DNA of 64,000 nucleotides from a virus (IMGVR_UViG_3300030117_005808:1-64000); one strand, 5' to 3'; shown: positions 3,620 through 64,000, counted from the first letter of the stretch. Translations and numbers: made by a program. The notes: generated from the sequence alone by a model not told the origin.

Positions 3620-5571
3620 AGAAAATATTAGTTAGAGGCCCAGTGTTATCACAATCTGGATATGGGGAACATACTCGATTTGTTCTACGCGCCTTACGTT
3701 TGCAAGAATCTGAGCTAGATATTCATATTCTTCCAACTGGCTGGGGCGAGACTGGCTGGCTAGCGATCAACGATGAAGAAAGAGAATGGATTGATTCTAG
3801 AGTAGCTGCCGGCGCAGCACACTTGCAGCAAAAACTATCATATGATATTTCTGTTCAAGTCACTATCCCTAATGAGTGGCAAAAACTTGCACCTATTAAT
3901 ATTGGAGTTACAGCAGGAATCGAAACTAATAAAGTTTCTCCAACTTGGCTTGAAATGTGTAATATTATGGATAAAATTATTACTATTTCAGAACACTCTA
4001 AAAACGGTTTTGTAGCGACCGAATATCATGGTCATAATAAACAAACTGGCGCCCCTATGCATCTAAAGTGTAACGTGCCTGTTGAAGTAGCTGGGTATCC
4101 CGTAAAAGATCACAAACCTGTTGAAATATCGCTGGAGCTTGATTATGATTTTAACTACTTGGCTATTTCTCAGTGGGGTCCGAGAAAGAATATGGACAAA
4201 CTTATTAAATGGTTTGTAGAAGAAAATCATGATCAAGAGGTTGGGCTTATTATAAAAACGAGTCTTAAAAACAATTCTGTGGTGGATAGAGAATACATCG
4301 AACAGGTCGTATTGCAATCAATACCAAAGGTGGAAGATCGCAAATGTAAAATATATCTTTTGCACGGTGACATGTCTGAATCTGAGATTCATTCACTTTA
4401 TTTGCACCCAAAGGTTAAGGCACTTGTATCTTTAACCCACGGGGAGGGTTTCGGACTTCCTTTATTCGAAGCTGCATATAGTGGAATACCAGTTATCGCA
4501 CCCGGATGGTCAGGGCAAACAGATTTTTTATATGCTCCAACTAAGAACAACTCAAAGAAAAACAAGAATAAACGTAAAGCATACTTTGCTGATGTGGACT
4601 ACACGCTTGGACCTATTGAAGAACATGCAGTTTGGCCGGGTGTTCTAGAAAAAGAGACAATGTGGTGTTACCCAACAGAGGGTTCGTTCAAAATGAGGCT
4701 ACGTCAGGTTAGAAAAAGTTACAATAAGTGGCTTACTAAGGCGAAGCATCTTCAAGAGTGGGTTCACAAAGAGTTTAGCTGGGATAAAAAGCATAAAGAA
4801 CTCTCTTTTATGATCAATACACCAGATCCTGCACTAACCTTTTCATCTGATAAACTTCCAAAAATCTCTATTATTACTTCTGTATATAATGGTGATGAGT
4901 TCATTCGCTCATTCTTAGAAGACATCACAAGTCAAACTATTTTTGAAGATAAGTGCGAGCTTATTCTAATAAATGCTAACTCACCGGGCAATGAAGAATG
5001 GGCCATTCAAGAGTACATGGAAAAATATCCTAATAATATTATTTATAAGCGCCTTGAAGAGGATCCCGGCATTTATGGAGTATGGAATATGGGTGTTGAG
5101 ATGGCCTCTGGAGAGTACTTAACAAATGCCAACCTAGATGACAGGAAAGCTGTTAACTCTCTTGAGAGACACGCCAGAGAACTCTATACGAATGATGGTG
5201 TTGATCTGGTATATGCGGACATGGCAATTACGGACCGGCCCAATGAAACATTTAAAAATAATAACTCAGAGGGACGACAATATAACTTCCCAGAGTTTAG
5301 TTTTGATAATTTAAAAATGACAAATATGCCGCATGCATCACCTATGTGGCGCAAAAGTTATCATGATAAATACGGACTTTTTGATGATAAATATAAATCT
5401 GCTGGTGATTGGGAACTTTGGCTTAGAGGGGCATCTCAAGGAAGCAAATTTAAAAAGATTAATTCTATTTTAGGTCTGTATTATTTCAATCCCACAGGTA
5501 TCTCGACCAACCCAGAGAACTTTAGCTGGAAAAGAAAAGAAGAAAAAGAGGTTTTTGAAAAATATCAATGA
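3616..5571 (+). CDS. Bifunctional glycosyltransferase, GT4 + C-terminal GT2
   Basis: SGYG, PRKN and EGFGLPLFEA (GT4), then PKISIITSVYN...NANLDD...AGDWELWLR (GT2). Confidence 0.9.
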   Translation: MKKILVRGPVLSQSGYGEHTRFVLRALRLQESELDIHILPTGWGETGWLAINDEEREWIDSRVAAGAAHLQQKLSYDISVQVTIPNEWQKLAPINIGVTAGIETNKVSPTWLEMCNIMDKIITISEHSKNGFVATEYHGHNKQTGAPMHLKCNVPVEVAGYPVKDHKPVEISLELDYDFNYLAISQWGPRKNMDKLIKWFVEENHDQEVGLIIKTSLKNNSVVDREYIEQVVLQSIPKVEDRKCKIYLLHGDMSESEIHSLYLHPKVKALVSLTHGEGFGLPLFEAAYSGIPVIAPGWSGQTDFLYAPTKNNSKKNKNKRKAYFADVDYTLGPIEEHAVWPGVLEKETMWCYPTEGSFKMRLRQVRKSYNKWLTKAKHLQEWVHKEFSWDKKHKELSFMINTPDPALTFSSDKLPKISIITSVYNGDEFIRSFLEDITSQTIFEDKCELILINANSPGNEEWAIQEYMEKYPNNIIYKRLEEDPGIYGVWNMGVEMASGEYLTNANLDDRKAVNSLERHARELYTNDGVDLVYADMAITDRPNETFKNNNSEGRQYNFPEFSFDNLKMTNMPHASPMWRKSYHDKYGLFDDKYKSAGDWELWLRGASQGSKFKKINSILGLYYFNPTGISTNPENFSWKRKEEKEVFEKYQ

Positions 5572-23160: not shown

Positions 23161-24315
23161 GTGCATCATATGGAAAAAGAAAAAAACCCGACATCAAAAA
23201 TAGCTTTACTATTTAACAGCCGGAATAATTACAGATTATTTGAGGATATATTCTTTAGACACACAGTCGTAGACTTTTCAGATTATTATATTTTTAATAT
23301 CGATCTAGGCTCTAGGGAAGAACAGAGAGAAAATGCGAAACAACTCTTAGAAAACTATGGGATTATCGACATTGAAGTTAATATGAAAGATCCTAATATT
23401 TATTCTGCTAGTCGAACTATGGAACTCTGCATGGAATACATAGAGGAAAATAATTTAGATATTGATTGGCTAATGTGGTATTCTCATGATTGTCATATGA
23501 TCGGTAATCAGTTTATGATTAAACTAGAAGAAAAGATAGAGGAAAATCCTAGATTTAATGAAGAAGTGGGTATGATTGGGTTTTGTGATTATAATACGGT
23601 TGAAGTGGGTAGCCCAATTCATGGCCGTGGCATGCTTCTAAAAGGAATAGCAGACAAGCCTCACCGTGGCTGGTATGAACACATGCCTGAAGAATATCAA
23701 AAAGCTGAATATTTTATTGTTGAAGCACCACAGGATAATGGTGCCCTTTTCAATATCAAATTATATAAGAAATACATTGTTTCAGATTATAAGTACATAC
23801 TTTACAACTGGATGGATGATATCGCTGCTCAATTTGGTGTGAATCGGATAGCATCGATTTGTATCCCATCGTTAGAAATGGCAGACCTATATAGAGAAAA
23901 ACACAATTTTAATGTTTCTCGTTCGCTTTCAAATAATAATGAATTTCACATGGATTCTCCACAAAAGGCAAAAAGCTTGACACCTCATTGGCGAAAAAAA
24001 TATTTATACTCTCGACCGAAAGGTCACGAAGAACAGTTCATCAAAGAAATAGATAAGTATAGAAACTCCATACAAGATCATCTATTTAACTGGAGTGTCG
24101 CTGACGGACCAAAAACATTGGATGACTTGAGAAGCAATTCTGACCTCACATTGAGTGAGTTAAGAGGGATGGCCCGCGCACGCGGAATCAAGCGATATTC
24201 TACAATGAATAAAACAGAATTGTTGCGCTCTTTGGATACTAAAATTAACCCTATACGAGTTTACCCATATGGGCTAATGACCGAGAAACCAAAGGAAGAT
24301 GCAGTCAGTGAATAA
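23161..24315 (+). CDS. GT2-like protein with C-terminal Rho-N/HeH domain
   Basis: FNSRNN...NIDLGS...WYSHDC GT-A-like core; C-terminal LTLSELRGMARARGIKRYSTMNKTELL matches the Rho termination factor N-terminal HeH pattern. Confidence 0.6.
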   Translation: MHHMEKEKNPTSKIALLFNSRNNYRLFEDIFFRHTVVDFSDYYIFNIDLGSREEQRENAKQLLENYGIIDIEVNMKDPNIYSASRTMELCMEYIEENNLDIDWLMWYSHDCHMIGNQFMIKLEEKIEENPRFNEEVGMIGFCDYNTVEVGSPIHGRGMLLKGIADKPHRGWYEHMPEEYQKAEYFIVEAPQDNGALFNIKLYKKYIVSDYKYILYNWMDDIAAQFGVNRIASICIPSLEMADLYREKHNFNVSRSLSNNNEFHMDSPQKAKSLTPHWRKKYLYSRPKGHEEQFIKEIDKYRNSIQDHLFNWSVADGPKTLDDLRSNSDLTLSELRGMARARGIKRYSTMNKTELLRSLDTKINPIRVYPYGLMTEKPKEDAVSE

Positions 24316-25850: not shown

Positions 25851-26611
25851 AACCACAAATATCAATTATAACCGCTACACACTACAGGCCTGATTTATTA
25901 GCAAGATGTATCAAGGCGGTGCAACAGTCTACTTTTAAAAACTACGAACACATAGTGGTTTCAGATCACTGTCCCAAGGCTCGTCAAGTATATGATATGT
26001 TTAAGGATGATAAGAGAATTAGGTTTTTTGAAAATCCGCCACCCCATATACCAAACCAAGGTTCCCGTGCCCAAAATTTAGGAATACAGGTTTCAAGATC
26101 TGAAAATATTTGTTATTGTAATGATGATAATATTATCATGCCTAATCACTTAGGCCTGCTACACAATGCATTATCAACGGGAGAACATGATGTTGTTTAT
26201 TTAATGACACATGAAATACGCTGCGGACGTGGAGACAACTCTATCAAAAATATTGTGAAGCGGGACTTCTTTAAAGACTTAGAACCAGAAAAATATGTTA
26301 AATCAGATTTATTATATTCAAACCCAAGGGATATGTCCAATCTTGGGCACACAAAAGAGATAATTAAGAAGTCTGGACAGTGGAAGTTAGCGCACGAATG
26401 TCACCTGAACGTAGAGGATACTGATTTTTTGAATCGCTTGGATGAGGCCGCAGGCGATAGAATAAAAAATATCTTAACTTATAGCAATGTGTACTACGTT
26501 AGAAATTCTTGTTTTCATCGAGATAATGTTTATCATGATAAAGTAAAAAATATGTCACAAGATGAAGTATTTGTTTATCCTGAGCTTTTGAAAACAACAG
26601 GTGTTATTTAA
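25847..26611 (+). CDS. Glycosyltransferase family 2
   Basis: ISIITAT..RP, VVSD, YCNDDN, EDTDF. Confidence 0.85.
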   Translation: MKPQISIITATHYRPDLLARCIKAVQQSTFKNYEHIVVSDHCPKARQVYDMFKDDKRIRFFENPPPHIPNQGSRAQNLGIQVSRSENICYCNDDNIIMPNHLGLLHNALSTGEHDVVYLMTHEIRCGRGDNSIKNIVKRDFFKDLEPEKYVKSDLLYSNPRDMSNLGHTKEIIKKSGQWKLAHECHLNVEDTDFLNRLDEAAGDRIKNILTYSNVYYVRNSCFHRDNVYHDKVKNMSQDEVFVYPELLKTTGVI

Positions 26612-26612
26612 T

Positions 26613-27590
26613 ATGGCCAAGCGAGCACTAATAACAGGAATCTCAGGTCAGGACGGAAGTTATTTGGCTGAACACTTACTTGATCTTGGGTATGAAGTTC
26701 ATGGTGTTATCAGGAGGACTTCTGTTGCTGAAAATCAAGATAGCAGGATCAAACACTTGCAGGACATAGTTAACACTCACTATGGTGATATGTTAGATCA
26801 GCCATCCTTAACAAAAATATTAGTGGATGTTCAGCCGGATGAAATCTATAATTTAGCAGCGATGAGTCACGTTCGAATCAGCTTTGATGTCCCGTCATTT
26901 ACTATACAGACTAATGGCATAGCGGTTCTAAACTTGCTGGAAGCGTATAGAATGTTTGCACCGAGTGCAAAATTTTATCAAGCTAGTTCATCAGAAATGT
27001 TCGGCAATTCAGTGGATGAGGATGGAGTCCAAAGACTAACAACTCCGATGAATCCGGTTAGCCCATATGGATGTGCCAAGCTATTAGCATATAATCTGGT
27101 TAGACACTACAGACACGCTTATGGTCTTCATGCTTGCAATGGAATTTTGTTTAATCACGAATCTCCTCGGAGGGGTTCAAATTTTGTTACCAACAAGGTT
27201 GTAAAAACAGCCGTTGAAATAAAGAAAGGTTTAAAAGATAGGCTTGAATTAGGCAACCTAGACTCTTATCGAGACTGGGGCCATTCTAAAGATTATGTGA
27301 AAGCCATGCATATGATAGTAAATCATCACACCCCTGATGAGTTTATAGTCGCCACTGGTGAAACAAATTCTGTTCGCGACTTGTGTGACTACGTTTTTAA
27401 AAAGTTAGGTATGGATTATAAAGACTGGGTTATACAGAATCCAAAGTTTATGAGGCCTGAAGAATTAAATTATTTAAAAGGGGACTCAACAAAAATAAGG
27501 AAAACTTTATCTTGGGAACCAGTATATGATTTTGAGGATCTCATAGATGAAATGATAGCACACTGGATAATAAAACTGGAGAACACATAA
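26613..27590 (+). CDS. gmd: GDP-mannose 4,6-dehydratase, copy 1
   Basis: [46 protein letters not shown]. Confidence 0.95.
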   Translation: MAKRALITGISGQDGSYLAEHLLDLGYEVHGVIRRTSVAENQDSRIKHLQDIVNTHYGDMLDQPSLTKILVDVQPDEIYNLAAMSHVRISFDVPSFTIQTNGIAVLNLLEAYRMFAPSAKFYQASSSEMFGNSVDEDGVQRLTTPMNPVSPYGCAKLLAYNLVRHYRHAYGLHACNGILFNHESPRRGSNFVTNKVVKTAVEIKKGLKDRLELGNLDSYRDWGHSKDYVKAMHMIVNHHTPDEFIVATGETNSVRDLCDYVFKKLGMDYKDWVIQNPKFMRPEELNYLKGDSTKIRKTLSWEPVYDFEDLIDEMIAHWIIKLENT

Positions 27591-27940
27591 TGGAAAAAAT
27601 TAAGTTTGTGCCCAAAGGATGGGGTTTTGAAAAATGGATTGTTAACTGCGAGGAGTATTGTGGCAAACTGTTATACTTTGTTAAGGATAAGCGATGTTCA
27701 TGGCACTATCACAAGCTAAAAGATGAAGTATTCTATATACAGTCAGGCAGAATGCTTGTGAGATATTCGGATGAAGACGATTTAAATAATGCAGAAGAAA
27801 TAGAACTTGGTCCGGGCGACAAATTTCATGTTTATCGTGGATTACGACATCAGATGTACGCATTAGAAGACACAGAGCTATTTGAATTTTCAACTCAGCA
27901 TTTTGATTCTGACAGTTATAGAATAGTAAGAGGAGATTAG
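27590..27940 (+). CDS. Cupin, mannose-6-phosphate isomerase-like
   Basis: PKGWG.E, SWHYHKLKDE, RH, EFST. Confidence 0.78.
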   Translation: MEKIKFVPKGWGFEKWIVNCEEYCGKLLYFVKDKRCSWHYHKLKDEVFYIQSGRMLVRYSDEDDLNNAEEIELGPGDKFHVYRGLRHQMYALEDTELFEFSTQHFDSDSYRIVRGD

Positions 27941-27944
27941 CTGT

Positions 27945-28859
27945 ATGTCTACAGGACTTGTGGTAACAGGCGGCTCAGGCATGGTGGGAACAGCGTTTAA
28001 AAAACTCTGCCCGGAGGCTGATTATCCGAATAGAAGCCAATTTCATAGCGGAATGTACGACGCAGAAGGCAAGAACTTAGTTCACCTTGCTGCTAAGGTT
28101 GGTGGTGTAAAGGCAAACACTGATGAGATAGGTGATTTTTATAGAACAAACTCTATGATTAATCAAAAGCTTCTGCATCATGCATATGTATCAAAGGCAA
28201 ATAAAGTCGTTTCAATGTTATCAACTTGTGTTTATCCTGATGCACCTTACATCACATATCCATTAACAGAGGAGCAACTGCATCTTGGGCCACCACATTC
28301 ATCAAACTTTGGCTACGCTTATGCAAAAAGAATGGTGGATGTTATGTCCCGCGCATACCGTCAGCAATATGGGTGTAATTTTATTACTGCTATACCTAAT
28401 AATTTGTATGGTGAGAATGATAATTTTCACTTAGAAGATAGCCATGTTATACCTGCTATTATTCGTAAGGTGTGGGAAGCTAAAATAAACAAGAAGCCTT
28501 TTGTAAAGTGTTGGGGCGACGGATCTCCGCTGAGAGAGTTTACATATTCTGAAGACGCTGCTAAAATATTATTATTTTTGTTAGACAACTATGATGATCC
28601 CGAGCCCATAAACATAGGAAATACAGAGGAATACTCTATTAAGCAAGTTGCCGAAATGATATGCTCTATCATGGAATACGATGGTAAAATTCTATGGGAT
28701 ACAGCTATGCCAGCAGGTCAGTATAGAAAACCAAGTTCAAATCAAAAGCTTTTAGATCTTGGTTGGAAAAAAGAATGGTATACTTCTTTGCAAAAAGGCT
28801 TGACTAAAACTTGCAAATGGGTTATATTAAAGTATCCAAGCATAAGAGGTGTCTCTTGA
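27945..28859 (+). CDS. fcl: GDP-L-fucose synthase (epimerase/reductase)
   Basis: [22 protein letters not shown] (catalytic Cys), YAYAK, NLYG, SHVIP (catalytic His), REF. Confidence 0.92.
28800..28828 (+). promoter_or_regulatory. Intragenic sigma70 promoter upstream of gmd copy 2
   Basis: TTGACT (28800-28805), 17 bp, TATATT (28823-28828); GAGGT RBS and TTG start 28856 follow. Confidence 0.65.
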
Positions 28860-29818
28860 AAACAGCTTTAATAACTGGAATAACAGGACAAGATGGATCT
28901 TATCTAGCAGAACTTCTTCTGGAAAAAGGATATAGAGTAGTTGGTCTTAAGCGAAGAACTTCTACTATTTGCACCGAACGTCTTGATCACATTTTTGAAC
29001 ACCCTAAATTTACCATGAGATATTTTGAACTAAATGATTCCGGATGCATGTGGCGATTACTTAACGAGTACAAGCCAGATGAAATTTACAATCTTGCAGC
29101 CCAGTCTCATGTTCGAGTATCCTTTGAAGTGCCAGAAAGCACTACGGACACTATCGTGATGGGGACTCTTCGTTTACTGGAGGCAATGCGGCATATTGTA
29201 CCGAATGCACGTTTTTATCAAGCATCCTCTTCAGAGATGTTTGGGGATAACCCTGAGAGTCCACAGGATGAGTCTACAGCCCTTCAGCCCGCTTCCCCAT
29301 ACGCCTGCGCTAAAGTGTATGCTCATCACCTTGTAAGGAACTACAGAGAGGCTTACGGACTACATGCCTCATCAGGCATTCTTTTTAATCATGAGTCTCC
29401 CCGCAGGGGCGAAACGTTTGTCACACGAAAAATTACTTTAGCTGCTGCTAAAATTAAATTGGGATTACAGGATAAGCTTTATCTTGGTAATTTAGATGCC
29501 ATGCGCGACTGGGGTTTCGCTGGAGACTACGTTAAAATGATGTGGCTAATGTTACAACAAGACGAACCAGACGATTATGTCATCGCGACTGGCGAGACTC
29601 ACTCTGTTAAAGAATTCTTAGAGGTGGTTTTTGATCACGCTGGTCTAGACATTGAAAAATACGTCGAACAAGATCCGCGCCTGTTCAGACCCCATGAGGT
29701 CCCGCTGCTGTTGGGGGATGCCACAAAGGCAAAAAATAAACTAGGCTGGAAACCTGAAATTAAATTCAAAGAACTGGCTATTATGATGTATGAAGAGGAA
29801 TATAAATCCCTTCTATAA
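28856..29818 (+). CDS. gmd: GDP-mannose 4,6-dehydratase, copy 2
   Basis: [53 protein letters not shown]. Confidence 0.95.
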
Positions 29819-29828
29819 AGGAGATACG

Positions 29829-30677
29829 ATGAGAAAAGTATTAGTTACGGGTGGTTGTGGTTTCATTGGTAGCAATCTAGTTGATTACCTGAGAGATTTA
29901 AATTACAACGTGGTTGTTGTAGACAATATGTCATCCGGAAAAAAAGAGTATTGTAGAGATGATGTTGAATACCACTTTGATGATTTTCAAAAAATTCTTA
30001 GTGATGGAACCCTAGATGGAGCGGGGATTGAAGCTGTTTTTCATCTGGCCGCAGAAGCTAGAATTCAACCAAGTTTTGAGGATCCAGTTTATACCTGCAA
30101 CAACAATTCTTTTGGAACGGTAATCGTTTGTGAATTTGCACGAAAGAACAAGTGTAAAGTTGTATACGCTGGCTCTAGTTCTTATTATGGTGGAGTTTAT
30201 CTTAATCCTTACTGTTTTGCAAAGTGGCAAGGCGAGGAGGCATGCAAGATGTATTCTGAGGTATACGGAGTTAGTACAGCTATTATGAGATTTTTTAATG
30301 TGTATGGGCCACGCAATCCAATGATTGGTCAATACACTCCGGTGGTCGCTATTTTTGAGCGACAAAAGAAGGATAATACTCCTTTAACAATCGTTGGAGA
30401 TGGAGAGCAGAGAAGAGATTTCACGTTCGTTCGAGATATTTGCAGCGGACTTGAGTTAGCTAGTAGAGACACTTGGAATGGTGAAATATTTAATCTTGGC
30501 ACTGGAATGAACTACTCAATCAATGAGTTAGCAGGCATGTATAACCATGAAAAAGTTCACATCCCGGCCCGCCCCGGTGAAGCAAGATTCTCTCTAGCTG
30601 ATAACTCAAAAACTGTTGAACTGCTAGGCTGGGAACCACAACAAGATTTAGAGGAATATATAAAGAGTATAACATGA
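29829..30677 (+). CDS. NAD-dependent epimerase (UDP-hexose 4-epimerase-like)
   Basis: TGGCGFIG, HLAA, YCFAK, FNVYGP, GDGEQRRDF. Confidence 0.9.
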   Translation: MRKVLVTGGCGFIGSNLVDYLRDLNYNVVVVDNMSSGKKEYCRDDVEYHFDDFQKILSDGTLDGAGIEAVFHLAAEARIQPSFEDPVYTCNNNSFGTVIVCEFARKNKCKVVYAGSSSYYGGVYLNPYCFAKWQGEEACKMYSEVYGVSTAIMRFFNVYGPRNPMIGQYTPVVAIFERQKKDNTPLTIVGDGEQRRDFTFVRDICSGLELASRDTWNGEIFNLGTGMNYSINELAGMYNHEKVHIPARPGEARFSLADNSKTVELLGWEPQQDLEEYIKSIT

Positions 30678-31516
30678 AAGTAGGCTTAATAGGAAACGGT
30701 TTCGTTGGAAGGGCTATCTATGAAAATTTAAAGCAAAATTATGATTTTGTTATTTATGACAAAAACCCTGCGTTAGCCAACTGCTGTAACATTTCAGAAA
30801 TAACGCAAGATTGTAAATTTATTTTTGTCGCAGTGCCGACACCAATGCACTTAGATGGATCCCCAGATCTGTCAATAGTATTAGAGGTAGTTAAGGAAAT
30901 ATATGAAAATTACAATAATAATATTGTAATATTGAAGTCCACTGTGGTTCCGGGCACATCTAAGATGATAAAACAACAGTTTTCCAATCTAAGAATCGTA
31001 TTCAGTCCAGAGTTCTTGACAGAGGCTCATTCAATAGAGGATTTTAAAAATTGCAGTTATATGATTTTTGGTGGACAAGATGAAGATACTCATGAGTGTG
31101 TGAATCTTATGGAGAGTGTTTTTCCTAATAAAAAATATGTTACCTCTGATTGTCAGACCTCTGAAATGGTAAAATATCTGATGAATTGTTTTTTATCGAT
31201 AAAGGTGTCGTTTGCAAACGAGATGAAGCAGGTATGCGACACTATTGGTATTTCATATGATAAGGTTAGTGAACTAGCACTGTTGGATGATAGGATGGGC
31301 AAAAGCCATTTTAGAGTCCCCGGCCCTGATGGATTTCACGGCTTCGGTGGTAAATGTTTTCCAAAAGATTTGAATGCTTTGATGTATTATTGTATTTCAA
31401 ACAATATAAAGCCCACGATGTTAAGAGCAGCGTGGCAAAAAAACTTAGAAGTTAGAGAAGAAAAAGATTGGCTCAATATAGAGGGAGCCGTGACTAAGGA
31501 GAAAAAAGATGAGTAA
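30674..31516 (+). CDS. UDP-glucose/GDP-mannose dehydrogenase family, lacking the C-terminal domain
   Basis: GNGFVG, VPTP, KSTV.PG, PEFL.E, EMVKY, GFGGKCFPKD (catalytic Cys); 280 aa. Confidence 0.88.
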   Translation: MKVGLIGNGFVGRAIYENLKQNYDFVIYDKNPALANCCNISEITQDCKFIFVAVPTPMHLDGSPDLSIVLEVVKEIYENYNNNIVILKSTVVPGTSKMIKQQFSNLRIVFSPEFLTEAHSIEDFKNCSYMIFGGQDEDTHECVNLMESVFPNKKYVTSDCQTSEMVKYLMNCFLSIKVSFANEMKQVCDTIGISYDKVSELALLDDRMGKSHFRVPGPDGFHGFGGKCFPKDLNALMYYCISNNIKPTMLRAAWQKNLEVREEKDWLNIEGAVTKEKKDE

Positions 31517-42530: not shown

Positions 42531-42980
42531 ATGGCTCAAGGTTTAGCAGTAGCACTGCCGCTGGAATTAGACACGACTGACGGTCCGTATAAGTTACATA
42601 AGAACTTGACCGATATGGCCGCACAAAATTTAAAAATGGTTATTTTAACCTCCCCCGGCGAGAGAGTGATGATCCCAGAGTTTGGAGTTGGCATTAGAAA
42701 CTTTCTTTTTGAGCCAAACAATAATGACACAAGAGAAAGAATTAGAAACAGAATTCAAGTTCAAGTTGAAAAATACTTACCATATATTGAGCTAGTAAGT
42801 CTTGAATTATACAAGCCACAAAGCGCATTAGTGGGCGAGACAGAAGATAATGGTTTAGTCATAAGAATAAAATATTCAATACCAGCCGCAAATGTCGTCT
42901 CAGAGTTAACCATAGACGCAGGCACCGGCGCCTCCACTTCTACTGGAGGTAGCTCTGGCGGTTCTGGCGGCGGCTATTAA
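42531..42980 (+). CDS. Baseplate wedge protein, gp25/GPW family
   Basis: NLKMVILTSPGERVMIPEFGVGI..FLFE, YLPYI. Confidence 0.92.
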   Translation: MAQGLAVALPLELDTTDGPYKLHKNLTDMAAQNLKMVILTSPGERVMIPEFGVGIRNFLFEPNNNDTRERIRNRIQVQVEKYLPYIELVSLELYKPQSALVGETEDNGLVIRIKYSIPAANVVSELTIDAGTGASTSTGGSSGGSGGGY

Positions 42981-43006
42981 TCTATGTGTTTAAATGTTTG
43001 TTTGAA

Positions 43007-43015
43007 TACTATTTA
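43007..43015 (+). promoter_or_regulatory. Candidate late promoter TACTATTTA
   Basis: Intergenic, 19 nt before ATG 43035. Confidence 0.6.
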
Positions 43016-43034
43016 AAGAGTGGAGAAACACTAG

Positions 43035-44831
43035 ATGGCTAGAAGAAATGTACCCATAGATTATACCAGTAGAGATTTTGATTCCATTAGGGATGATCTC
43101 GTAAACTATGCAAAAAGATACTATCCTGATACTTTTAAAGATTTTAGCGAAGCCTCTTTTGGGTCTCTAATGCTGGATACAGTCGCCTACGTCGGTGACA
43201 TTATGTCATTCTATCTTGATTATCAGGTCAACGAGTCATTCATTGACACGGCCGTCGATTTTAAAAATATCCTTCGATTAGCCAAACAAATGGGATATAA
43301 ATATACCGGAGCCAAAACGACTTCTGGTATGGTGTCTTTCTACGCCATTGTCCCAGCAACATCAATCGGGCTTGGTCCAAAAACAAGCCATATGCCAATC
43401 CTAAAAGCAAATACTGTAGTTAAGTCAGATTCGGGCGCCTCGTTTATCTTGACAGATGATGTTCGTTTTGATGATCCATCTAACGAAACTGTAGCTGCAC
43501 AAACAAATGCTACAACAGGAATTCCAATAAGCTACGCTGTTAAAGCCGAGGGCCAAGTAATATCAGGCATATTTAATCAAACCACTCAAACTATAGGTGC
43601 CTTTCAGAAGTTTCTCCCAGTCCGTATAGACAATGCTAATTTGATAGAGATTGTTAGTGTGTTCGATTCTGAGGGTCATGAATATTTCGAGGTTGAATAT
43701 TTAACACAAGATGTAGTTTACAAGGCTGTCCCCAATAGGGATGAAAATACAAGACAAAATGCCCCATCCCTTATGAGGCCATTCGTTGCCGCTCGACGAT
43801 TTACAGTCGAAAGAGACATTAACGGAGTTACTCTTACATTTGGACATGGCTCTGACTCGGAGTCAGGATCCCAGACGATTGCGGATCCGGCAAATGTTGT
43901 TTTGCAGAGAGCAGCAAAAGATTATACCACCGATGAATCTTTTGATCCGTCAAACTTAGTTGGAAACGATAAACTAGGCATAGGCCCTGCAAACACTACT
44001 CTAACAATCAGGTACAGGGAAAACACTGCCTCAAGTGCAAACGCTGCGATCGGATCGATCACTTCGGTGACAAGTCCTATCTTTGAATTTAACGACCCAT
44101 CTATAGCAAACACGTCAGCAGCAAGAGATGTTGTTGCAAGTATAGAGTGTTCAAACGAGGAGCCATTGGTCGGCTCAACTGCTATCCCATCACGGGAAGA
44201 AGTGAGACAAGAGGCCATGATGGCCTTCTCTAGTCAGAATAGAGCGGTAACCTCACAAGATTATGAGGCTCTTGTTTATATGATGCCCGGTAAGTTTGGT
44301 TCTGTTAAGCGTGCGAGAGTGGTTAGAGACCAAGACTCACTAAAAAGAAATCTGAACATTTACGTTATTTCTGAAAACTCTTTTGGTAAGATGGCAGCTA
44401 CAAACAGCGCGATCAAAGAAAACTTGAAAGTTCACTTAAATAGATATCGCATGATTAACGATACGGTAGATATTTTAGATGCAAAAGTGGTTAACATAGC
44501 TATTGACTTTGAGGTTGTTTCTAGTGAAGAGGTTAATAAATATGAGGTCCTTGATTCCTGCATACAAGCACTCAGGAGAAAATATTCTTCTCCAATGTTT
44601 ATAGGAGAAAGATTTTATCTTACAGATGTGTATACAGAACTCAATAAAGTGCGCGGTGTCGTGGATACTTCTAGAGTCAAGCTTGTTAACAAATCAGGTG
44701 GCAATTATTCATCCTCGGCTCTTAATATAGATCAATATATGTCCCTCGACGGTAGATACTTATCAGTCCCAGACAATGTAATACTTGAGATCAAGTTCCC
44801 AAGAATAGATATTAAAGGAACTGTGAGATAA
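43035..44831 (+). CDS. Baseplate wedge subunit, T4 gp6/baseplate-J-like
   Basis: DYTSRDFDSIR...YVGDIMSFYLD...E.FIDTA, FG.G, QNRAVTSQDYE. Confidence 0.9.
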   Translation: MARRNVPIDYTSRDFDSIRDDLVNYAKRYYPDTFKDFSEASFGSLMLDTVAYVGDIMSFYLDYQVNESFIDTAVDFKNILRLAKQMGYKYTGAKTTSGMVSFYAIVPATSIGLGPKTSHMPILKANTVVKSDSGASFILTDDVRFDDPSNETVAAQTNATTGIPISYAVKAEGQVISGIFNQTTQTIGAFQKFLPVRIDNANLIEIVSVFDSEGHEYFEVEYLTQDVVYKAVPNRDENTRQNAPSLMRPFVAARRFTVERDINGVTLTFGHGSDSESGSQTIADPANVVLQRAAKDYTTDESFDPSNLVGNDKLGIGPANTTLTIRYRENTASSANAAIGSITSVTSPIFEFNDPSIANTSAARDVVASIECSNEEPLVGSTAIPSREEVRQEAMMAFSSQNRAVTSQDYEALVYMMPGKFGSVKRARVVRDQDSLKRNLNIYVISENSFGKMAATNSAIKENLKVHLNRYRMINDTVDILDAKVVNIAIDFEVVSSEEVNKYEVLDSCIQALRRKYSSPMFIGERFYLTDVYTELNKVRGVVDTSRVKLVNKSGGNYSSSALNIDQYMSLDGRYLSVPDNVILEIKFPRIDIKGTVR

Positions 44832-46345
44832 TGGCTATTAAAAGATACTATGCAAAAATAGACAATACTATAACTAACGCTTTCAAAGAAAATTTAGTTA
44901 CTCGCGGCACAGGGTCTAATATGGGGGCCTCAGATATTCTTGAGGTGTTTTCTATTTATGGTCAAGCTAGTTCGGCATCAGCCGAAGAGGCTAGAGTGCT
45001 TATTAAATTTAATTGTACAGCATCAACAGATTCTATTAAAGCAGACAGAGATGCCGGCGTTCTACCAGCTAGCGGAAGTGTGAATTTTTATTTAAGACTT
45101 TACAATGCGCCTCATAGTCAAACTCTTCCAAAATCTTATACAATGGATGTCTCTGCAATTTCCGGCGGATGGACAGAGGGCACCGGTCTTGATATGGAGG
45201 GCTATAAAGATATAGGAATATCTAATTGGGTGAATAGGATAGCTTCTCGATCTGCTGGCGACCACGCGTGGAGCACCACCGGTGGAGACTACTATTCAGA
45301 CGCGTCGTCATCTTTTACTGCTTCTTTTGATGGTGGAGTCGAGGACATACAACTAGATATCACATCACTTGTCGAACAATGGATCGCGGCCGATAAAGAG
45401 GACGACGGCATAGGCATATTCCTGTCCAGCGAATACTCCAGCGCCGCTCGCTCTTATTACACAAAGAAGTTTTTTGCGCGTGGCACAGAATTTTTCTATA
45501 AGCAACCAAATATTGAGGCACGATGGGATTCTTCTATAGAGGACGACCGAGGTAACTTTTATTATAGTAGTTCCCTAGCCACCGCCGGCGAAAACTTAAA
45601 TACCATTTATTTCTACAATTATTTTAGGGGCCGACTTCGTAATATTCCCGATATCGGAACAGGAAACATAGGTGTAAGTGTCTTTTCTGCAAGTGCTGGA
45701 ACCCCCAACGGTTCGGCTATTCGTTTGGTTGCAGATGGCGCACATGTTCTATCAACCGGCCTGTTTGCTGTGACAGGCGGGCATGTATCAACAGGTATTT
45801 ACTCTGCGTCTTTTGCCATGACTGCGGCCACCACCCCTTTGCCCGTTGTTAATGATGTATGGTTTAAATTAGACAACGCAGTCGCCGATGCATCAACGGG
45901 TGTTCAATATGGCACTGGAACAATCGAGCCTAGAACCATTACAAACATGTACAACGCCCCCACAAATGATTATGTGGTTACGATAACAAACTTGCGAGAA
46001 AAGTATCGCCCTGATGAGACAGCACGTTTTAGAGTCTACAGTCGCCAAAAAGATTGGACACCAACTATTTATACTAAGGCGGTAAGCACGCCAGAGGTTC
46101 AAATTGTTGAAAGCGGCTCTTTCGAAGTCTTCAGGGTTATAGATGATCTAAAAGTTATACCACACGGAACGGGAAGCACACCATATTATACTTTCCTTTC
46201 ATACGACACATCCGGATCATATTTTGATTTAGATATGGCACTCTTTGAGCCCGGATATGTCCACGGTATAAAACTAGCATTCTATAACGAAGATATAGGG
46301 AGTTGGGTTGAGCAATCAGAAACCTTTAAATTTAGAGTTGAGTAA
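44831..46345 (+). CDS. Virion structural protein (beta-rich, DNRLRE-like N-terminal domain)
   Basis: DNTI...ARVLIKF...LRLY...WTEGTG...DITSLVEQW; lies between gp6-like and the giant wedge protein. Confidence 0.6.
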   Translation: MAIKRYYAKIDNTITNAFKENLVTRGTGSNMGASDILEVFSIYGQASSASAEEARVLIKFNCTASTDSIKADRDAGVLPASGSVNFYLRLYNAPHSQTLPKSYTMDVSAISGGWTEGTGLDMEGYKDIGISNWVNRIASRSAGDHAWSTTGGDYYSDASSSFTASFDGGVEDIQLDITSLVEQWIAADKEDDGIGIFLSSEYSSAARSYYTKKFFARGTEFFYKQPNIEARWDSSIEDDRGNFYYSSSLATAGENLNTIYFYNYFRGRLRNIPDIGTGNIGVSVFSASAGTPNGSAIRLVADGAHVLSTGLFAVTGGHVSTGIYSASFAMTAATTPLPVVNDVWFKLDNAVADASTGVQYGTGTIEPRTITNMYNAPTNDYVVTITNLREKYRPDETARFRVYSRQKDWTPTIYTKAVSTPEVQIVESGSFEVFRVIDDLKVIPHGTGSTPYYTFLSYDTSGSYFDLDMALFEPGYVHGIKLAFYNEDIGSWVEQSETFKFRVE

Positions 46346-46361
46346 CTAAGGTAGTTAAAGT

Positions 46362-49300
46362 ATGAGTATCAAAAAACTATTTGATTCAAATAAAACAAAC
46401 GACATACTCGTCTCAACTAATCTAGAAGAAGAGGTAGTCAAAAACGTCCCCGAGCTTGAATCTGCGGATAACGTCAGAGAGCAGATCGAGAGGATCAATC
46501 GTTTTATACCACAGGTGGATTATAGTGATCCAGCCAACTTTGCTGTTTATGGATCAGCCGAGCGATATTATAGGGATTCATTCCACAGAATCGCTACTCA
46601 ATACCCGTATGATGGTTCCGAAGAAGAGATAACTCGCTACGACAACGAGTCCAACTATCTTGACCTTCATATCCTTGAGAATGAGTATCCTAGGACGCTT
46701 GGGCACGTTCGGTTTCCTTCAAACAATCTTGGCCCAAACGCTACCGCTAACCAGTTTGGTCAGAACACCCACGCAGCAAACATTACATTTTTTGGTGGAC
46801 CAAATGCTATAGCAGGTGGGATGACAACTGGCTCATTCCACCTACAGTTCACTGGTTCCAACTATTACGATACAGATATTTATCAAACTGATGGTACGCT
46901 TGCATTAGACAGAGTTGGGTCAAGAGAAAGTAACTTAACTTATAACCTTCCTAGCAAAGGACTCACAGTTGAGTTTTGGCAAGGAACCGAAGGAAACCTG
47001 ATAGGTGGGACCGGCGCGTTTGGCCGACAAGCCAGACACGCTTTGTTTGATTTGTGGAACGGAGAAGCCTCAAGTTCGGCTCAATATGGTCGCCTAACTG
47101 TATACGCTTCAGGTTCTACAACAGCCTTTAAAGGCATTTATCTAAACGCATATTCAGGCACTGTTGGAATCCAAGAACTTAAGTTATTGGATCCTGCTGT
47201 AGCTGCTCAAATCCCACCACAATATGTTGATACTTCATCTCCCACGCCGGGTCACTTGGCTTTTGCTTTTAGTTCTGGGTCAACTCTGGGCTTAACTGTT
47301 AAGACATATATTAATGGTGTTCTAACCACAACAACAGGCTCTTCAATCGCCCTAAATGAAGTCACTGGCGCCCTCCGAGGCCGTATTGGTGCTCTCCTAA
47401 CGAATCCATCAGGCACTTCTATAGGCACAGATATGGATGGTTATGGTACCAGTATTCGCAGTGCCTACGACGAGTTTAGGTACTGGAAAGCCGAGAGAAC
47501 AGAAAAAGAAATACAACAAAACTATTGGACACAAGTTCGTGGCGGCACAAATAACGAAATAGCAAACGCAGAACTTGGTGTATATTACAAGTTTAACGAG
47601 GGCATTACAGGGGACGCAACAACTGATGCGACTGTTTTAGACTATTCTGGCCGTATTACAAACGGAACCATCACAAACTACGGCACTGATGCTACCAGTA
47701 CGCTAGTAAGAAATGCCCATCCAGCCCCCGCACGCAGTTCGCTTATTGTTGCTGCTGGAGCAGCTACATCAGAGTTCAAAGACCCAATCATTTATGCAAG
47801 CCACCCGGATGTTGTCTCTGCACTTGACAGATTGGTCGCATCTGGTAGCGTCCACGACTTTGAAAACCAAGCAAGCATAAAAGATTCTATCCCAAGCTGG
47901 ATTATAGAAGAAGACGAAACATCAGGCGGTGAAGAGTTAGGCAAGCTTACACAGATCCTCGGTTCCTATATGGATACTCTCAACCTGCAAATCCAGTCCC
48001 TGCCTACATTAGCAGACAATACATACTTAAGCGGCAGCGATAAGCCTACACCATTTATGAAAAATCTGTTAAGCTCCCGAGGCCTAGCAGTCCCAGAAAT
48101 CTTTGTGGATGCTGACCTTCTCCAGCGATTCGCCAACAGAAGCGACACCGAAAGCTACACTCTTGATATTAACGATACCAAGAATCTTATTTACAAGAAT
48201 ATCTACAACAACCTTACTTACCTTTACAAGTCAAAGGGCACAGAAAAAGCATTTAGAAACCTTATCCGTTGTTACGGTATTGGCGAAGATGTCATTAGAT
48301 TCAACGCATACGCAAGCAATCAAACCTTTGACATCCAAGAAACAAGACAAGACAGAGTTATTAGAAAGAACTATGTTGACTTTAACCACCCTGATAGGTT
48401 TGATGGCGTTGTTTACCAGAGAGGCAACAGCATTGTGCCAGAGGCAGATGGCATTTCTTTCTTCTCGGCATCCTCACCAGACGCCGCCTTTGCTCAAACC
48501 GCAGAACTAGAAGTTATATTCCCAAGAAAGTTTGAGTTCGCTAACTCACAATATTTTGATACACCTTTTGTTACAGCATCTCTCTACGGTAAAGCATCAG
48601 CATCAGCAGACCCAGCATCCTTTGACGCATCATTCAGTAATAACCCAGCCAACGCGCCTTGGCTTGTTGCTTATGCTGTTCGGACCCATCAGAATTCAAA
48701 GGACGCTTATTTTGTTCTTGATTCTAACTTATTTACAAATCCGCTCACAAGTGATATTTACTCAAACATTTATGATAATCAGAAATGGAATCTGGCGATA
48801 AGAGTTAACTCTAAAGCTTGGCCATACGCAGCATCCTCCAGTGTTAACGGTGCGTTAGATGATCAAGACATAAGTTTTATTGGATATAATGTAGAGAACG
48901 GAGTCGTAAAAAATAGTTTTGTCTTAACAACTTCATCAGTGTCTTCCAACTTGGGGCCAAGTTTACCTTACCGCTACTTTGTTGGATCACAAATAACAAA
49001 CTATACCGGTGCAGTAGACCATCGAACTGATGTTTTGGCATCCTCACTGCGAGTGTATACAACCTACCTAGATGACGATGTTATCAAATCACACGCCCTT
49101 GATCCCGAAAACTACGGAACAAGAAACCCAAGCAGAAACTTTTTATTTTACAACGACTCTGGTCCCCAACTCGCGAGCGTTGTTGGAGGCATTAAAAACT
49201 CTATCCCAGAGTCTGTTTCTCTTGCTCTTAATTGGGATTATTCGCAGGTCACCACAACAGACCCCAACGGCCGCTTCATCGTCCAAGATGCATCATCTGG

Positions 49301-52300
49301 TTCAACAGGACTAACCAGCAGATACCCGCAAGAGAATGTTCTTACAAATGTTAATAAACAGTTCGCAGGCCGAGGTCAGTTTGGGGCTAGCGCATACAGT
49401 TCAACGGATGTCATCTCCAAGCAATTTGTTCAATCAGCACAACAAAGACTACCCGAAGTTGTTAATACCAACGACGACGTAAACGTTCTATCCAGAGATG
49501 ATGAACTTTATCCAAGAGATGCGTCTATTTCGCAGACCTACTACACCTTTGAAAAGAGCATGTACGGTATTGTTTCACAAGAAATGATCAATATGTTCTC
49601 GTCTATTGTTGAGTTCAACAACCTTATCGGTGAAGTTGTCCATAAGTATCGTGGCGAGTACAAGAGTTTAAGGCTTTTAAGAGAACTTTTCTTCGAGAAG
49701 ATTCAAAACAACCCTGACCTCGACAAGTTTATTGATTACTATAAGTGGATTGATTCCTCACTCAATATTTTCCTACAGCAGTTTGTTCCTGCTTCTGCTG
49801 ATGTTTCCGATGAGATTCGCACTGTGGTTGAAGATTATGTTCTTAACCGCTCCAAATACCAGCACAAGTACCCACAACTAGATTATAAGGGCAACGCTCG
49901 CTTTGGTGGCGACGAGGCCAAGTTAGAAGGCAGAGTCAAGGGCATTAGAGAACTAGAGTACAACTGGCAGTTTGGCCACGCGCCAACAACTAACTCTCAG
50001 ACTGAACATTCTACTTGGTGGAAAGAACGAGCAGAAAGAAACAACACAGCATTTAATACCGCTGCGCTTATTGATACAGCAAGAGAAGACATCCTCAACA
50101 TCATCCAGCTATTCAACTCTGCAAGCGCCCCATCGCTTAATGACGGCACCGGAGCCTCTGGGGTATACGAAGGGTCCACTTACGCCACAAGACGCTTCAC
50201 AAGGCAATATAAGCTTGATGCAGCCATCGTCCCTGACATCGGCGGTGGCTACAACTACCCAAGGGGCCATAAGCCGGATGCTATTTATTCTATAGTTTAC
50301 GACCGGCCGGTCGACGTGTCAGGCCTGACAAACGAGGAAGCAATACAGTTTGAAAAACAAGCGACGTTCACGCTTCCAAGCGAGGAACTAAGGCCTGTCA
50401 CAAAACAAGAAAAAAGAAGAGTCTCTGCCATTAATCCAAATGGCGTGTATTCCTCCAATTTGGGACCCCAAACGCCCGGAGGTGGATCAAAACTTGTTGC
50501 GCCTTTCATAGCGTTTAGCTCCTCTGTTTCTCCTGCTGGCGGTTACGGTACACAATGGCAAGAATACAATCGTAGACCAGACGTTAGTAAAGAAGAGTTG
50601 GCTGGGTACCATAATGATTCTTATGGTGACGACTATGAAGTTCCAATGCAAGGGCCGTTTACTAATCAACACGTTGGAGGCAATAGGCACAGGCATACAG
50701 ATTTAAATCAAGGTTCTGACAATCTAAAAACTCGGGCCGAGGCTTGGCTCGTTGCCGGCGCCGGTAACGATGGCATCTTCGCGCCGGCCAAGACCGCCTT
50801 CGCCAACCCGCCTGCTCCATTGAACCCAACCGTACCCGGATCTAGCCCCAACTACCGCAGAGACCAAACAGCCAAGCGCCCTGTTAACATCAAAAACATC
50901 AAACACAGAACAGGCTCACTCGGAACCATCGCGATGGGCAACTATTCTGCAAGTTATGAAATCGTTCAAACAACCGGCAGAACTCAAAACAACTCTGCGT
51001 TTGTAAAGTCAGAAGGTATAAGAGACAACTTTACCATCTCTGTTGCAGGCGCTGATGAGGTTGGTTATATCGATCACGTCACAGACTACGCCAAGCCTAC
51101 CCGCCGTAGAGCAGCCCATGTTATAGTTAACCGCTTCTCCGCACCCGGCGGTCCTGAAACAGCAGGTGATAGTCAGGGTGGACCGGGCCTCGACTTTGAA
51201 GCAGCAGAGTTTAGCCCTTACAACAACTTAAACTATAGAAACACTACAGTCCGAGATCCATTAAGAACGCTTTTGACCGACCACACAGCGTTTGGCGGTA
51301 TTGAGTCTGGGTCTGCTGTCTCCGCGCTGAACTATACGGACGTTACGGCTAGTTATCACAAGGTTAATCGAAACCCGCTGCATCGTTTGGAAGGATATGA
51401 TAACGGACAAGAAACGGCAGTTACCGGAACAGTGTTCGATAATTATTTTGTGCAGCATATGATTCCAAGATCTGATTTTCAATATTCTTGGATAACAGCA
51501 TCAACAGATAGATTTAATGCCGCCCTCGGCGCAGCAAATAATATATATGGATATTTTCCTTACGATGGACTTGCAAGAGTTTCAAGTTCTGCTAATGGCT
51601 TTAGGTACGAAGCAGCAGTTAATTTTGCTAGCGCAAGCGAAGTAGGCTCTGGCAATCCATTAGGAGTCCAGCAAGCGACAAGGCAGATCAGATTGATAAC
51701 AAGTGCGCTGATGCAAGATGCATCATTCGTCCCAACTGACTTTGCTGGCATAAACTCAAATGTTATAGAGCCTATTAGCGCATCTGAATTTACTATTGGT
51801 TATCCTCTGGATGCGGATCCTATGAATTATTATAACTACGGACCCTTTGGACAGGTTCCAGCCTTTGGTTCAGCTCATCGTGGTGGGTTTATAACTAGAA
51901 TAAACTCTAATGTCGCCGCAAACTTTAATGCATATTTTACTATGTTGATGGCTCATAGGGGAGGTAATGTTGGGCACCCAACTTGGAAACAGATCAGAGT
52001 CGGAGAGACTCAACTTGCACGACACTATCGTAAAAATAACTTATATACTAATACTTATGAGCCTGTCATAGCATCAAGCGTGGCCGATTTGTCTGGGACA
52101 AGACAAAAAATTTCTTCAACGACCGAAAGTGTTATACTAACTCAATCTGTTGTTACCGACCGATACTTCCCAGTCGTGTTTGAGGTTGAAGCAAGAGATG
52201 ATGAGCAAAATAGTAAAGTCCTTAAATCATCAAATTTTGTTATTCGAACTTCTTTTGTGAATGATACTATTACTTTTGACGACGCCACTATAGTCAACAG

Positions 52301-63268: not shown

Positions 63269-64000
63269 ATGGCTTTTTTAGATAATTCGGGTGATATTAT
63301 ACTCGACGCTGTGCTGACCGATACTGGTCGAATGAGACTTGCAAGAGGAGACGGCAGTTTTAAAATTGAAAAGTTCGCCCTTGGCGACGATGAAATCAAT
63401 TACGAACTTTACAATAAGAACCATTCAAGTGGTTCTGCTTATTATGATTTAGAGGTTTTGCAGTCTCCTGTCCTTGAGGCTTTTACTGATAATGCAGCCT
63501 CCATGAAGTCTAAGCTTATTTCTATTCCAAGAAATAACCTGCTATATCTCCCAGTATTGGCACTTAATGAAGTTTTTGATACAACTGCAACAGCTAAACA
63601 CACCTCTGGATTTTTTCTTGTGGCGGTTGATTCTGATACACAAACTGAGCTAGAGGTTAATACTTCTGGTGAGTCTGTGGCCGGTATCCTTTTTGGCGAG
63701 GATCCGGGCGCAAATGGCAATCGTATTCGAGTAGACCAAGGTTTGAACACAACAGCGATATCTCCGGGTAAAACTATTGGACCCCTATTACTTGAAACTC
63801 AATATTTGATTGAGATAGATAACCGTCTTGGGTCTGTTTCTAACCTTAAGGGCGGTGAAGCATCACCATCATTTATTGACGACGATAACCTTGCGTCTTA
63901 CTATCTTTCTAGGGGAACAGACCGAGAATTTGTAACAAACAATACAGACACTACCAACTCTGCTAATCAGATTATTAGTGGCCCGCGCGGCACTATTCTT
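63269..64000 (+). CDS. Structural protein, partial (runs off window end; not in ORF track)
   Basis: AGGAGAGG RBS; MAFLDNSGDIILDAVLTDTGRMRLARGDGSFKIEKFALGDDEINY... open to 64000; LTxxGRxxLA is typical of tail-fibre/baseplate N-termini. Confidence 0.8.
   Translation, partial: MAFLDNSGDIILDAVLTDTGRMRLARGDGSFKIEKFALGDDEINYELYNKNHSSGSAYYDLEVLQSPVLEAFTDNAASMKSKLISIPRNNLLYLPVLALNEVFDTTATAKHTSGFFLVAVDSDTQTELEVNTSGESVAGILFGEDPGANGNRIRVDQGLNTTAISPGKTIGPLLLETQYLIEIDNRLGSVSNLKGGEASPSFIDDDNLASYYLSRGTDREFVTNNTDTTNSANQIISGPRGTIL

Follow-up and report, generated by a model that had tools for sequence, protein, structure and literature searches.

The mycobacteriophages Che8, Corndog and Myrna O-glycosylate their virions by means of phage-encoded glycosyltransferases (GTs) (Freeman et al. 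2023, Cell Host Microbe, as summarised in PMC12619734), and in siphoviruses it is the subunits of capsid and tail tube that bear the glycans, at their C-termini (PMC12619734). These are the only phages for which demonstrated virion glycosylation could be traced in the literature. Here we analysed a stretch of 64,000 nucleotides of viral DNA (IMGVR_UViG_3300030117_005808:1-64000, hereafter the window), which forms the opening 64 kb of a contig (106.5 kb in all) from an uncultured aquatic (marine) T4-like phage, and in which the tripeptide [ST][GA]S is enriched in two large proteins encoded directly after baseplate genes: one of 504 residues (positions 44831-46345, + strand) and a giant one of 3185 residues (46362-55919, + strand). 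The same contig carries an adjacent pair of GT4-family genes (2351-5571) followed by a large cassette of sugar genes. As in the mycobacteriophages, phage-encoded soluble GTs would decorate the phage's own virion proteins through O-linkages made in the host cytoplasm, the glycan genes vary between relatives, and the GT genes lie in the genome near the virion genes. Unlike in the mycobacteriophages, the candidate sites are dispersed tripeptides in baseplate, fibre and outer proteins of T4-like myoviruses instead of C-termini of capsid and tail tube, they follow a defined three-residue pattern, and the sugar-nucleotide cassette is much larger; glycosylation, moreover, was demonstrated there and is deduced here. 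No report of a [ST][GA]S motif of this kind was found in the literature, and we are slightly inclined to see in the finding another instance of phages glycosylating their virions with enzymes of their own, here at a motif for which we found no earlier description.

Three systems outside the phages are of interest for comparison. In streptococci and staphylococci, the GtfA/GtfB pathway attaches O-linked N-acetylglucosamine to serine-rich repeat adhesins: an adjacent cytoplasmic pair of GT4-type enzymes primes serines in S-A/V/E-S contexts and more transferases extend the glycan, the substrates being unfolded regions built of long SASA-type tandem arrays. Two GT4 genes stand side by side here as well, which may be a parallel, and a weak GT2 match to GalT1 of the Fap1 pathway (5hea) was obtained; however, among solved structures the GT4s of the window showed no specific similarity to GtfA/GtfB, both of them keep the E-x7-E motif, and here isolated tripeptides lie in folded beta domains with no Ser-X tandem array. 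The autotransporter heptosyltransferases TibC and Aah modify many serines of TibA and AIDA-I in the cytoplasm, on 19-residue beta-helix repeats and with heptose as the sugar. They resemble the present case in their cytoplasmic O-glycosylation and in that a beta-rich surface protein is recognized by a brief strand-loop-strand context instead of a long linear sequon, but differ in enzyme family and sugar; no member of this BAHT-type family was found among 20 Pfam-scanned open reading frames (ORFs) from window positions 603-32975, which include a minority of the cassette ORFs. Chloroviruses, too, coat their particles independently of the host with a glycosylation machinery of their own: their cytoplasmic GTs act on the capsid of a eukaryotic virus, where the linkage is to nitrogen, at atypical sequons of the major capsid protein. 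The general O-glycosylation sequon of Bacteroidota, D-(S/T)-(A/I/L/V/M/T), does not describe our sites, as Asp is depleted before the tripeptide (0.4-fold at position -1 and 0.3-fold at -2); that pathway is periplasmic, while virion proteins assemble in the cytoplasm. To our knowledge, bacterial and viral O-glycosylation mostly operates without simple sequons.

The enrichment was quantified for each protein against the expectation from composition and against 2000 composition-preserving shuffles. The 504-residue protein holds 10 sites where 1.8 are expected (residues 27, 48, 63, 81, 163, 286, 325, 428, 447 and 461) and the 3185-residue protein holds 31 over its whole length where 7.1 are expected (Poisson p 3e-11), and in neither case did any of the 2000 shuffles reach the observed number. 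The initial annotation, counting by eye, had put the sites at about 10 and about 30 with an expectation several-fold lower, so that its estimate was close on all points; a four- to fivefold enrichment in both proteins is confirmed. It had also named proteins with few sites, and its numbers are right: 3 (2.4 expected) in the 2350-residue protein, 2 (1.2 expected) in the gp6-like protein, and 1 each in the ORFs starting at 55923 and 63269. Other neighbours are likewise near chance, namely the gp25-like protein (0), a 1256-residue protein (1 against 1.7 expected) and an 813-residue protein (2 against 1.1), as are the remaining + strand ORFs of the whole contig when pooled (44 observed, 37 expected); in the major head protein encoded here only 3 sites were counted, with 1.2 expected. 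When all tripeptides of the 3185-residue protein are ranked by over-representation, TGS and SGS take the first two places, and reverse or neighbouring patterns are not enriched (SAT 0, TAT 0, SGA 0, TGT 1). The sites are scattered singly, as had been claimed, with irregular spacing of 8 to 469 residues and no tandem array; six of them fall within residues 2553-2677 of the giant protein, where the alignment shows a gap for most relatives. BLASTP detected neither internal repeats nor similarity between the two proteins, which rules out domain repeats or paralogy, and the diverse codons at the sites rule out a motif at the DNA level.

Each of the three positions has its own residue preference, as seen in a profile pooled from 13 divergent giant proteins. 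At position 1, Ser is enriched 3.6-fold and Thr 4.6-fold with other residues near 1 (Asp reaches 1.7-fold before [GA]S); position 2 favours Gly (4.5-fold) and Ala (3.5-fold), more weakly Ser (2.2-fold), and is depleted in charged and bulky residues; position 3 prefers Ser (4.0-fold) over Thr (just 1.3-fold). The flanks are aromatic or aliphatic before the tripeptide and V, A, F or W after it, with K, R, P and D depleted. Such a preference for Ser over Thr at an exposed strand position fits recognition by an enzyme better than it fits folding.

The pattern is also maintained over wide evolutionary distances. The 504-residue family is very large, with more than 5,000 metagenome matches and 1,504 clusters at 50% identity; enrichment averages 4.4-fold over 149 cluster representatives, and all 120 close homologues of the protein carry 8 to 15 sites each. 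Most of these sites are kept in position, with S and T, or G and A, swapping within the motif: SGS428 is present in 120 of the 120 homologues and TGS447 in 119. The giant protein has a comparable fixed site (SGS979, in 26 of 26 sequences), yet the 26 sequences together contain 213 distinct motif columns and each protein has 24 to 48 sites; the sites thus turn over at constant density. Serines within the motif are better conserved than other serines in both proteins (0.96 against 0.64 in the 504-residue protein, 0.59 against 0.38 in the giant one; p=0.0005). The motif, then, is a position-specific and conserved feature at the protein level. Many homologues of the 504-residue protein are 620-670 residues long owing to an insertion of about 120-130 residues after residue ~142, which looks like an optional extra domain.

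The AlphaFold2 model of the 504-residue protein (82 diverse sequences) is all-beta and multi-domain, with a predicted local distance difference test score (pLDDT) of 91 and a predicted template modelling score (pTM) of 0.90. Foldseek matched it to generic arrays of Ig/FN3/macroglobulin-type beta-sandwiches and to a carbohydrate-binding module (CBM), with no T4 baseplate protein among the matches. Assigned by secondary structure, sites 163, 286 and 325 and the family position 362 (TGT in the window, TGS in most relatives) lie inside strands, sites 48, 81, 428 and 461 lie at or just before the start of a strand, and sites 27, 63 and 447 lie in loops; the initial annotation had expected surface loops, and loops hold the last three of these positions. 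Homologues without the motif still have its hydrophobic flanks, but their S/T and S positions are occupied by E, K, D, R or Q (HTGSI becomes HSEEI or HEGDI, YSASF becomes YKCQV or YRARL, and ESGSF becomes EDAYY). This tolerance of charged residues suggests that both hydroxyl residues of the motif are exposed and that the motif is dispensable for the fold.

The two proteins vary together across lineages, and with them the sugar genes. Ninety-eight IMG/VR loci with gp6-like, 504-like and giant genes in a row were compared, together with 52 further loci. In the 98 loci, the enrichment ratios of the 504-like and giant proteins correlate (Spearman 0.53) and are bimodally distributed: ten loci are motif-poor, their 504-like proteins holding 0-2 sites and their giant proteins scoring 0.5-2.0, and the others reach 2.5-8-fold and 2.7-5.8-fold, respectively. 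In none of the 98 does the gp6-like protein exceed 2 sites (range 0-2). The 52 further loci are all enriched, except L311 (2.2-fold). All long contigs share the order of nuclease, GT4 and GT4 genes followed by a conserved tail block, the cassette stopping some 0.2 kb short of the conserved stretch that runs on into the baseplate genes. In enriched genomes 3-26 kb of variable sugar genes lie between the second GT4 and the tail block (measured gaps of 26, 21, 23, 15.6, 14.7 and 13.3 kb, the smallest being 3.0-9.7 kb), and some 30 more have a distance of 20-41 kb from the GT4 to the 504-like gene. The gap in seven motif-poor genomes (G006-G010, G012 and G040) is 0.22-0.28 kb, and two more (G011 and G014) are alike by distance. 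The gene content of the cassette is nearly wholly different among the window and five enriched relatives (G001-G005), while the flanks are syntenic, which resembles the diversifying replacement of O-antigen genes at a fixed insertion point.

Cassette and motif were scored in 28 genomes placed on a single gp6 tree. The eight island-less genomes have ratios of 0.4-2.2 and the 20 island-bearing ones 2.6-6.4, so that the ranges do not overlap; enrichment had been expected to co-occur with glycan islands in related phages, and indeed it is present in 20 of 20 island-bearing genomes and in none of the eight island-less ones. Grouping the island-less rows as one clade was rejected by the approximately unbiased (AU) test (p 1.3e-7, the group having been named after the tree was seen), which implies at least two independent losses: one in L103 plus a seven-row group, the other in L311. 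All of the two to three independent contrasts are in the predicted direction. A search for more motif-poor lineages led to P0237 and P0211, without a close IMG/VR relative, and to P0268, which proved enriched once composition was allowed for.

The only transferases common to all enriched phages are the two GT4s. The pair is present in all long contigs in which the region is covered and adjacent in every relative examined. The first (2351-3619, + strand, 422 residues, PF00534) has the E-x7-E motif as EGFGLATLE and is a candidate priming protein O-glycosyltransferase; its best solved relative is 'Glycosyltransferase B736L' (3oy2, E 9e-9, C-terminal GT-B half only), which we take to be a protein of chlorovirus NY-2A. 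The second (3616-5571, + strand) fuses a GT4 (residues ~1-400, PF00534, also with E-x7-E) to a GT2 (~415-650, PF00535). In motif-poor relatives the second protein consists of the GT4 part alone (385-402 residues, without GT2). Just before its E-x7-E motif, at residues 264-268, HPKxK is invariant in the six aligned enriched genomes (G000-G005) and replaced (by D/N, D/K, A/N or S) in all five aligned motif-poor ones, a change that may reflect a shift in acceptor or donor specificity. A GT4 homologue with two in-frame TAG codons was seen in G046, the contig of L265 (94283-95518, - strand); it could be a pseudogene, or TAG could be read through in that phage.

Cultured phages offer a view from outside the metagenomes. 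Homologues of the first GT4 occur in only a handful of GenBank phages, among them Flavobacterium phage immuto and Microcystis phage Mel-JY01, the closest phages in culture when gp6-like proteins are compared (31% identity), and Rhodothermus phage RM378. Both immuto and Mel-JY01 have an adjacent GT4 pair and GT2 genes; the genes after gp6 are enriched 3.6-fold and 4.7-fold, respectively, and gp6 itself has no site. RM378, with its GT4 homologue, is enriched 2.2-fold overall, and its enriched ORFs cluster at 64.8-78.5 kb and include a neck and a virion protein. In these three phages the enrichment falls on baseplate, fibre or structural genes. Enrichment is not equally found in phages without such GTs: the virion proteins of T4, which has no GT4 pair, contain 14 sites against 25 expected (0.55-fold), and cyanophage S-T4, without a PF00534 gene, stands at 1.27-fold with no outlier ORF. 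These two values rule out a general trait of myovirus structural proteins.

The initial annotation restricted the motif to two baseplate proteins, and here it was too narrow: in relatives the enrichment extends to the 370- and 446-residue families (the next two genes past the window), the gp13-like neck protein, the sheath and the major head protein. Orthologues of the 346-residue protein have 6 sites against 1.2 expected in island-bearing genomes and 1 against 2.0 in island-less ones, and the 370-residue family falls from 3.5-fold to 1.3-fold. For the 446-residue family the ratios are 6.6-fold (island-bearing) and 3.4-fold (island-less), for the neck protein 4.9- and 2.6-fold, for the sheath 3.1- and 2.5-fold, and for the head protein 2.4- and 3.3-fold. 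Two features were seen in one relative (G001, the contig of L034). One is a 1451-residue protein rich in S, T and G (122699-127054) with 76 sites against 23 expected and without a counterpart in the contig of the window. The other is a tandem pair of tail-sheath paralogues (134132-137161 and 137289-140261; 1009 and 990 residues, 67% identical), both motif-enriched (9 and 11 sites), where the genome of the window has one sheath gene.

The simplest model consistent with these data would be the following. A tag of the form (hydrophobic)-[Ser/Thr]-[Gly/Ala]-Ser-(hydrophobic or small), presented on solvent-exposed strands and strand ends, would be O-glycosylated by cytoplasmic GTs of the phage before or during assembly. 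The GT4 pair would read the tag and put the first sugar on a serine, most likely that of position 3, which is almost strictly Ser; the hypervariable cassette would supply unusual nucleotide sugars and further transferases, and so build a lineage-specific glycan. The outcome would be a glycan coat on the periphery of the baseplate and, in relatives, also on fibres, neck, sheath and head. Loss of the cassette would relax selection for the sites on the baseplate proteins. We are marginally in favour of the central claim, that the motif is an O-glycosylation acceptor tag on outward-facing virion proteins made by the phage's own enzymes. The wider proposal is more tentative and, in our estimate, just short of an even chance: that a large and abundant clade of aquatic T4-like phages, and with it the distantly related cultured phages of Flavobacterium, Microcystis and Rhodothermus, uses a phi-[S/T]-[G/A]-S-phi sequon read by the GT4 pair, with the cassette extending the glycan into a lineage-specific coat on baseplate, fibres and sheath.

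Several observations weigh against the acceptor tag. With only two to three independent contrasts a sign test cannot be significant, and a host switch could drive the loss of both cassette and motif. The island-less L311 is only partly depleted, its homologue of the 504-residue protein keeping 5 sites, and a search for a cassette gene shared by every enriched genome found none. Motif-poor phages have an intact GT4 pair, with E-x7-E kept, so that the link between enzymes and motif is not a simple one; adding the enrichment that persists in the 446-residue, head, sheath and neck proteins despite absence of the cassette, cassette loss is no simple off-switch for the motif. The cassette might, furthermore, serve the glycosylation of DNA or of the host surface. 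Finally, the glycan nature of the modification, the residue that bears it, the enzyme that starts it and the very term sequon are inferences. The acceptor motif proposed in the initial annotation therefore stands in so far as it is position-specific, conserved, covarying between proteins and low where the cassette is absent, and stays conditional as to glycan and enzymes.

The main alternative is that cassette and host-contact proteins changed together in a host switch and that the motif is unmodified, serving structure or binding: small hydroxyl side chains, paired on exposed beta-strands, would pack against partners or touch host polysaccharide. This agrees with the placement of sites in or at the ends of strands of beta-sandwich domains, with the positional conservation of many of them, with the likely role of the proteins as host-contact parts of the tail, with the small number of contrasts, and with the partial enrichment left in other virion proteins of island-less phages. 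Nevertheless we consider it rather unlikely, at about one chance in four, because charged residues can stand at these positions without loss of the fold, position 3 does not admit Thr although Thr forms strands better than Ser, and the same tripeptide is enriched in unrelated proteins without sequence similarity; it is enriched, too, in phages of hosts as different as Flavobacterium, Microcystis and Rhodothermus, which share the GT4 pair, but not in the structural proteins of T4 and S-T4. Less likely still is that other enzymes or another modification act on the motif (phosphorylation, acylation, or glycosylation by the host or by phage enzymes outside the cassette), the cassette making a DNA hypermodification or a host-surface glycan. 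The lack of a universal cassette gene would suit this, as would the PD-(D/E)XK nuclease gene directly before the GT4 pair; GTs of phages are known to glycosylate DNA too, according to the review text in PMC12619734 (see also bioRxiv 10.1101/2023.12.21.572611). Yet motif density tracks the cassette in 28 of the 28 genomes scored, the GT4 pair alone is common to all enriched lineages, including the distant cultured ones, and no kinase or acyltransferase of matching distribution turned up, though no systematic search for one was made. The enrichment might also be spurious, produced by composition, low complexity or repeats, or by choosing the pattern post hoc. It is true that the pattern was picked after both proteins had been viewed and that S, T, G and A are fairly frequent in both; but shuffles never reach the counts, there are no repeats, neighbouring patterns are not enriched, and the result was replicated in about 150 independent loci and in the cluster representatives of the 504-residue family. 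Shuffles and replication refute this explanation, to which we give practically no weight.

The long ORFs of the contig are on the + strand throughout. Upstream of the nuclease gene, which was assigned by Pfam, a conserved 230-residue protein (603-1295) matches the Pfam anthrax lethal factor N/C-terminal domain at E 0.002, below the cut-off and probably by chance. The hypervariable glycan cassette (5568-31516, + strand, ~26 kb) fills the space from the GT4 pair to the conserved baseplate block, its GDP-sugar genes lying at 26601-31516; by Pfam it encodes sugar-nucleotide dehydratases (GDP-mannose-dehydratase-type), epimerases, a DegT aminotransferase, and UDP-Glc/GDP-Man dehydrogenase-like, RXYLT1-like, radical SAM and PFK-like kinase genes. 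One 384-residue cassette protein (23161-24315) ends in a Rho_N (SAP-like) module (PF07498). The tail block starts at 31.7 kb with the 2350-residue protein and continues with the gp25-like (149 residues, PF04965) and gp6-like (598 residues, phrog_219) baseplate wedge genes (42531-44831, + strand), the 504-residue and 3185-residue proteins, and more large proteins without a family match. Pfam and PHROG searches returned no family for either of the two motif-rich proteins, and tblastn of the 504-residue protein against GenBank phages gave no match; their gene position suggests a role in the baseplate. They are followed by the 346-residue protein (55923-56963, + strand), and the window closes within a 309-residue ORF (63269-64000, + strand) that extends beyond its end.

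Since the GT4 enzymes and the enrichment both recur in phages that have been cultured, the question is directly testable. Under the wider proposal, no bacterial virus would have had a sequon for O-glycosylation of proteins in the cytoplasm defined before this one. If the acceptor tag is real, tag and enzymes together would form a portable pair for glyco-engineering. Glycosylated virion surfaces would become predictable from sequence in a very abundant group of marine phages, and the large hypervariable lipopolysaccharide-like ('LPS-like') cassettes of aquatic phages would be given a function. The tag would also suggest that the host-recognition apparatus bears a glycan layer, which would act as shielding, stickiness or receptor mimicry.

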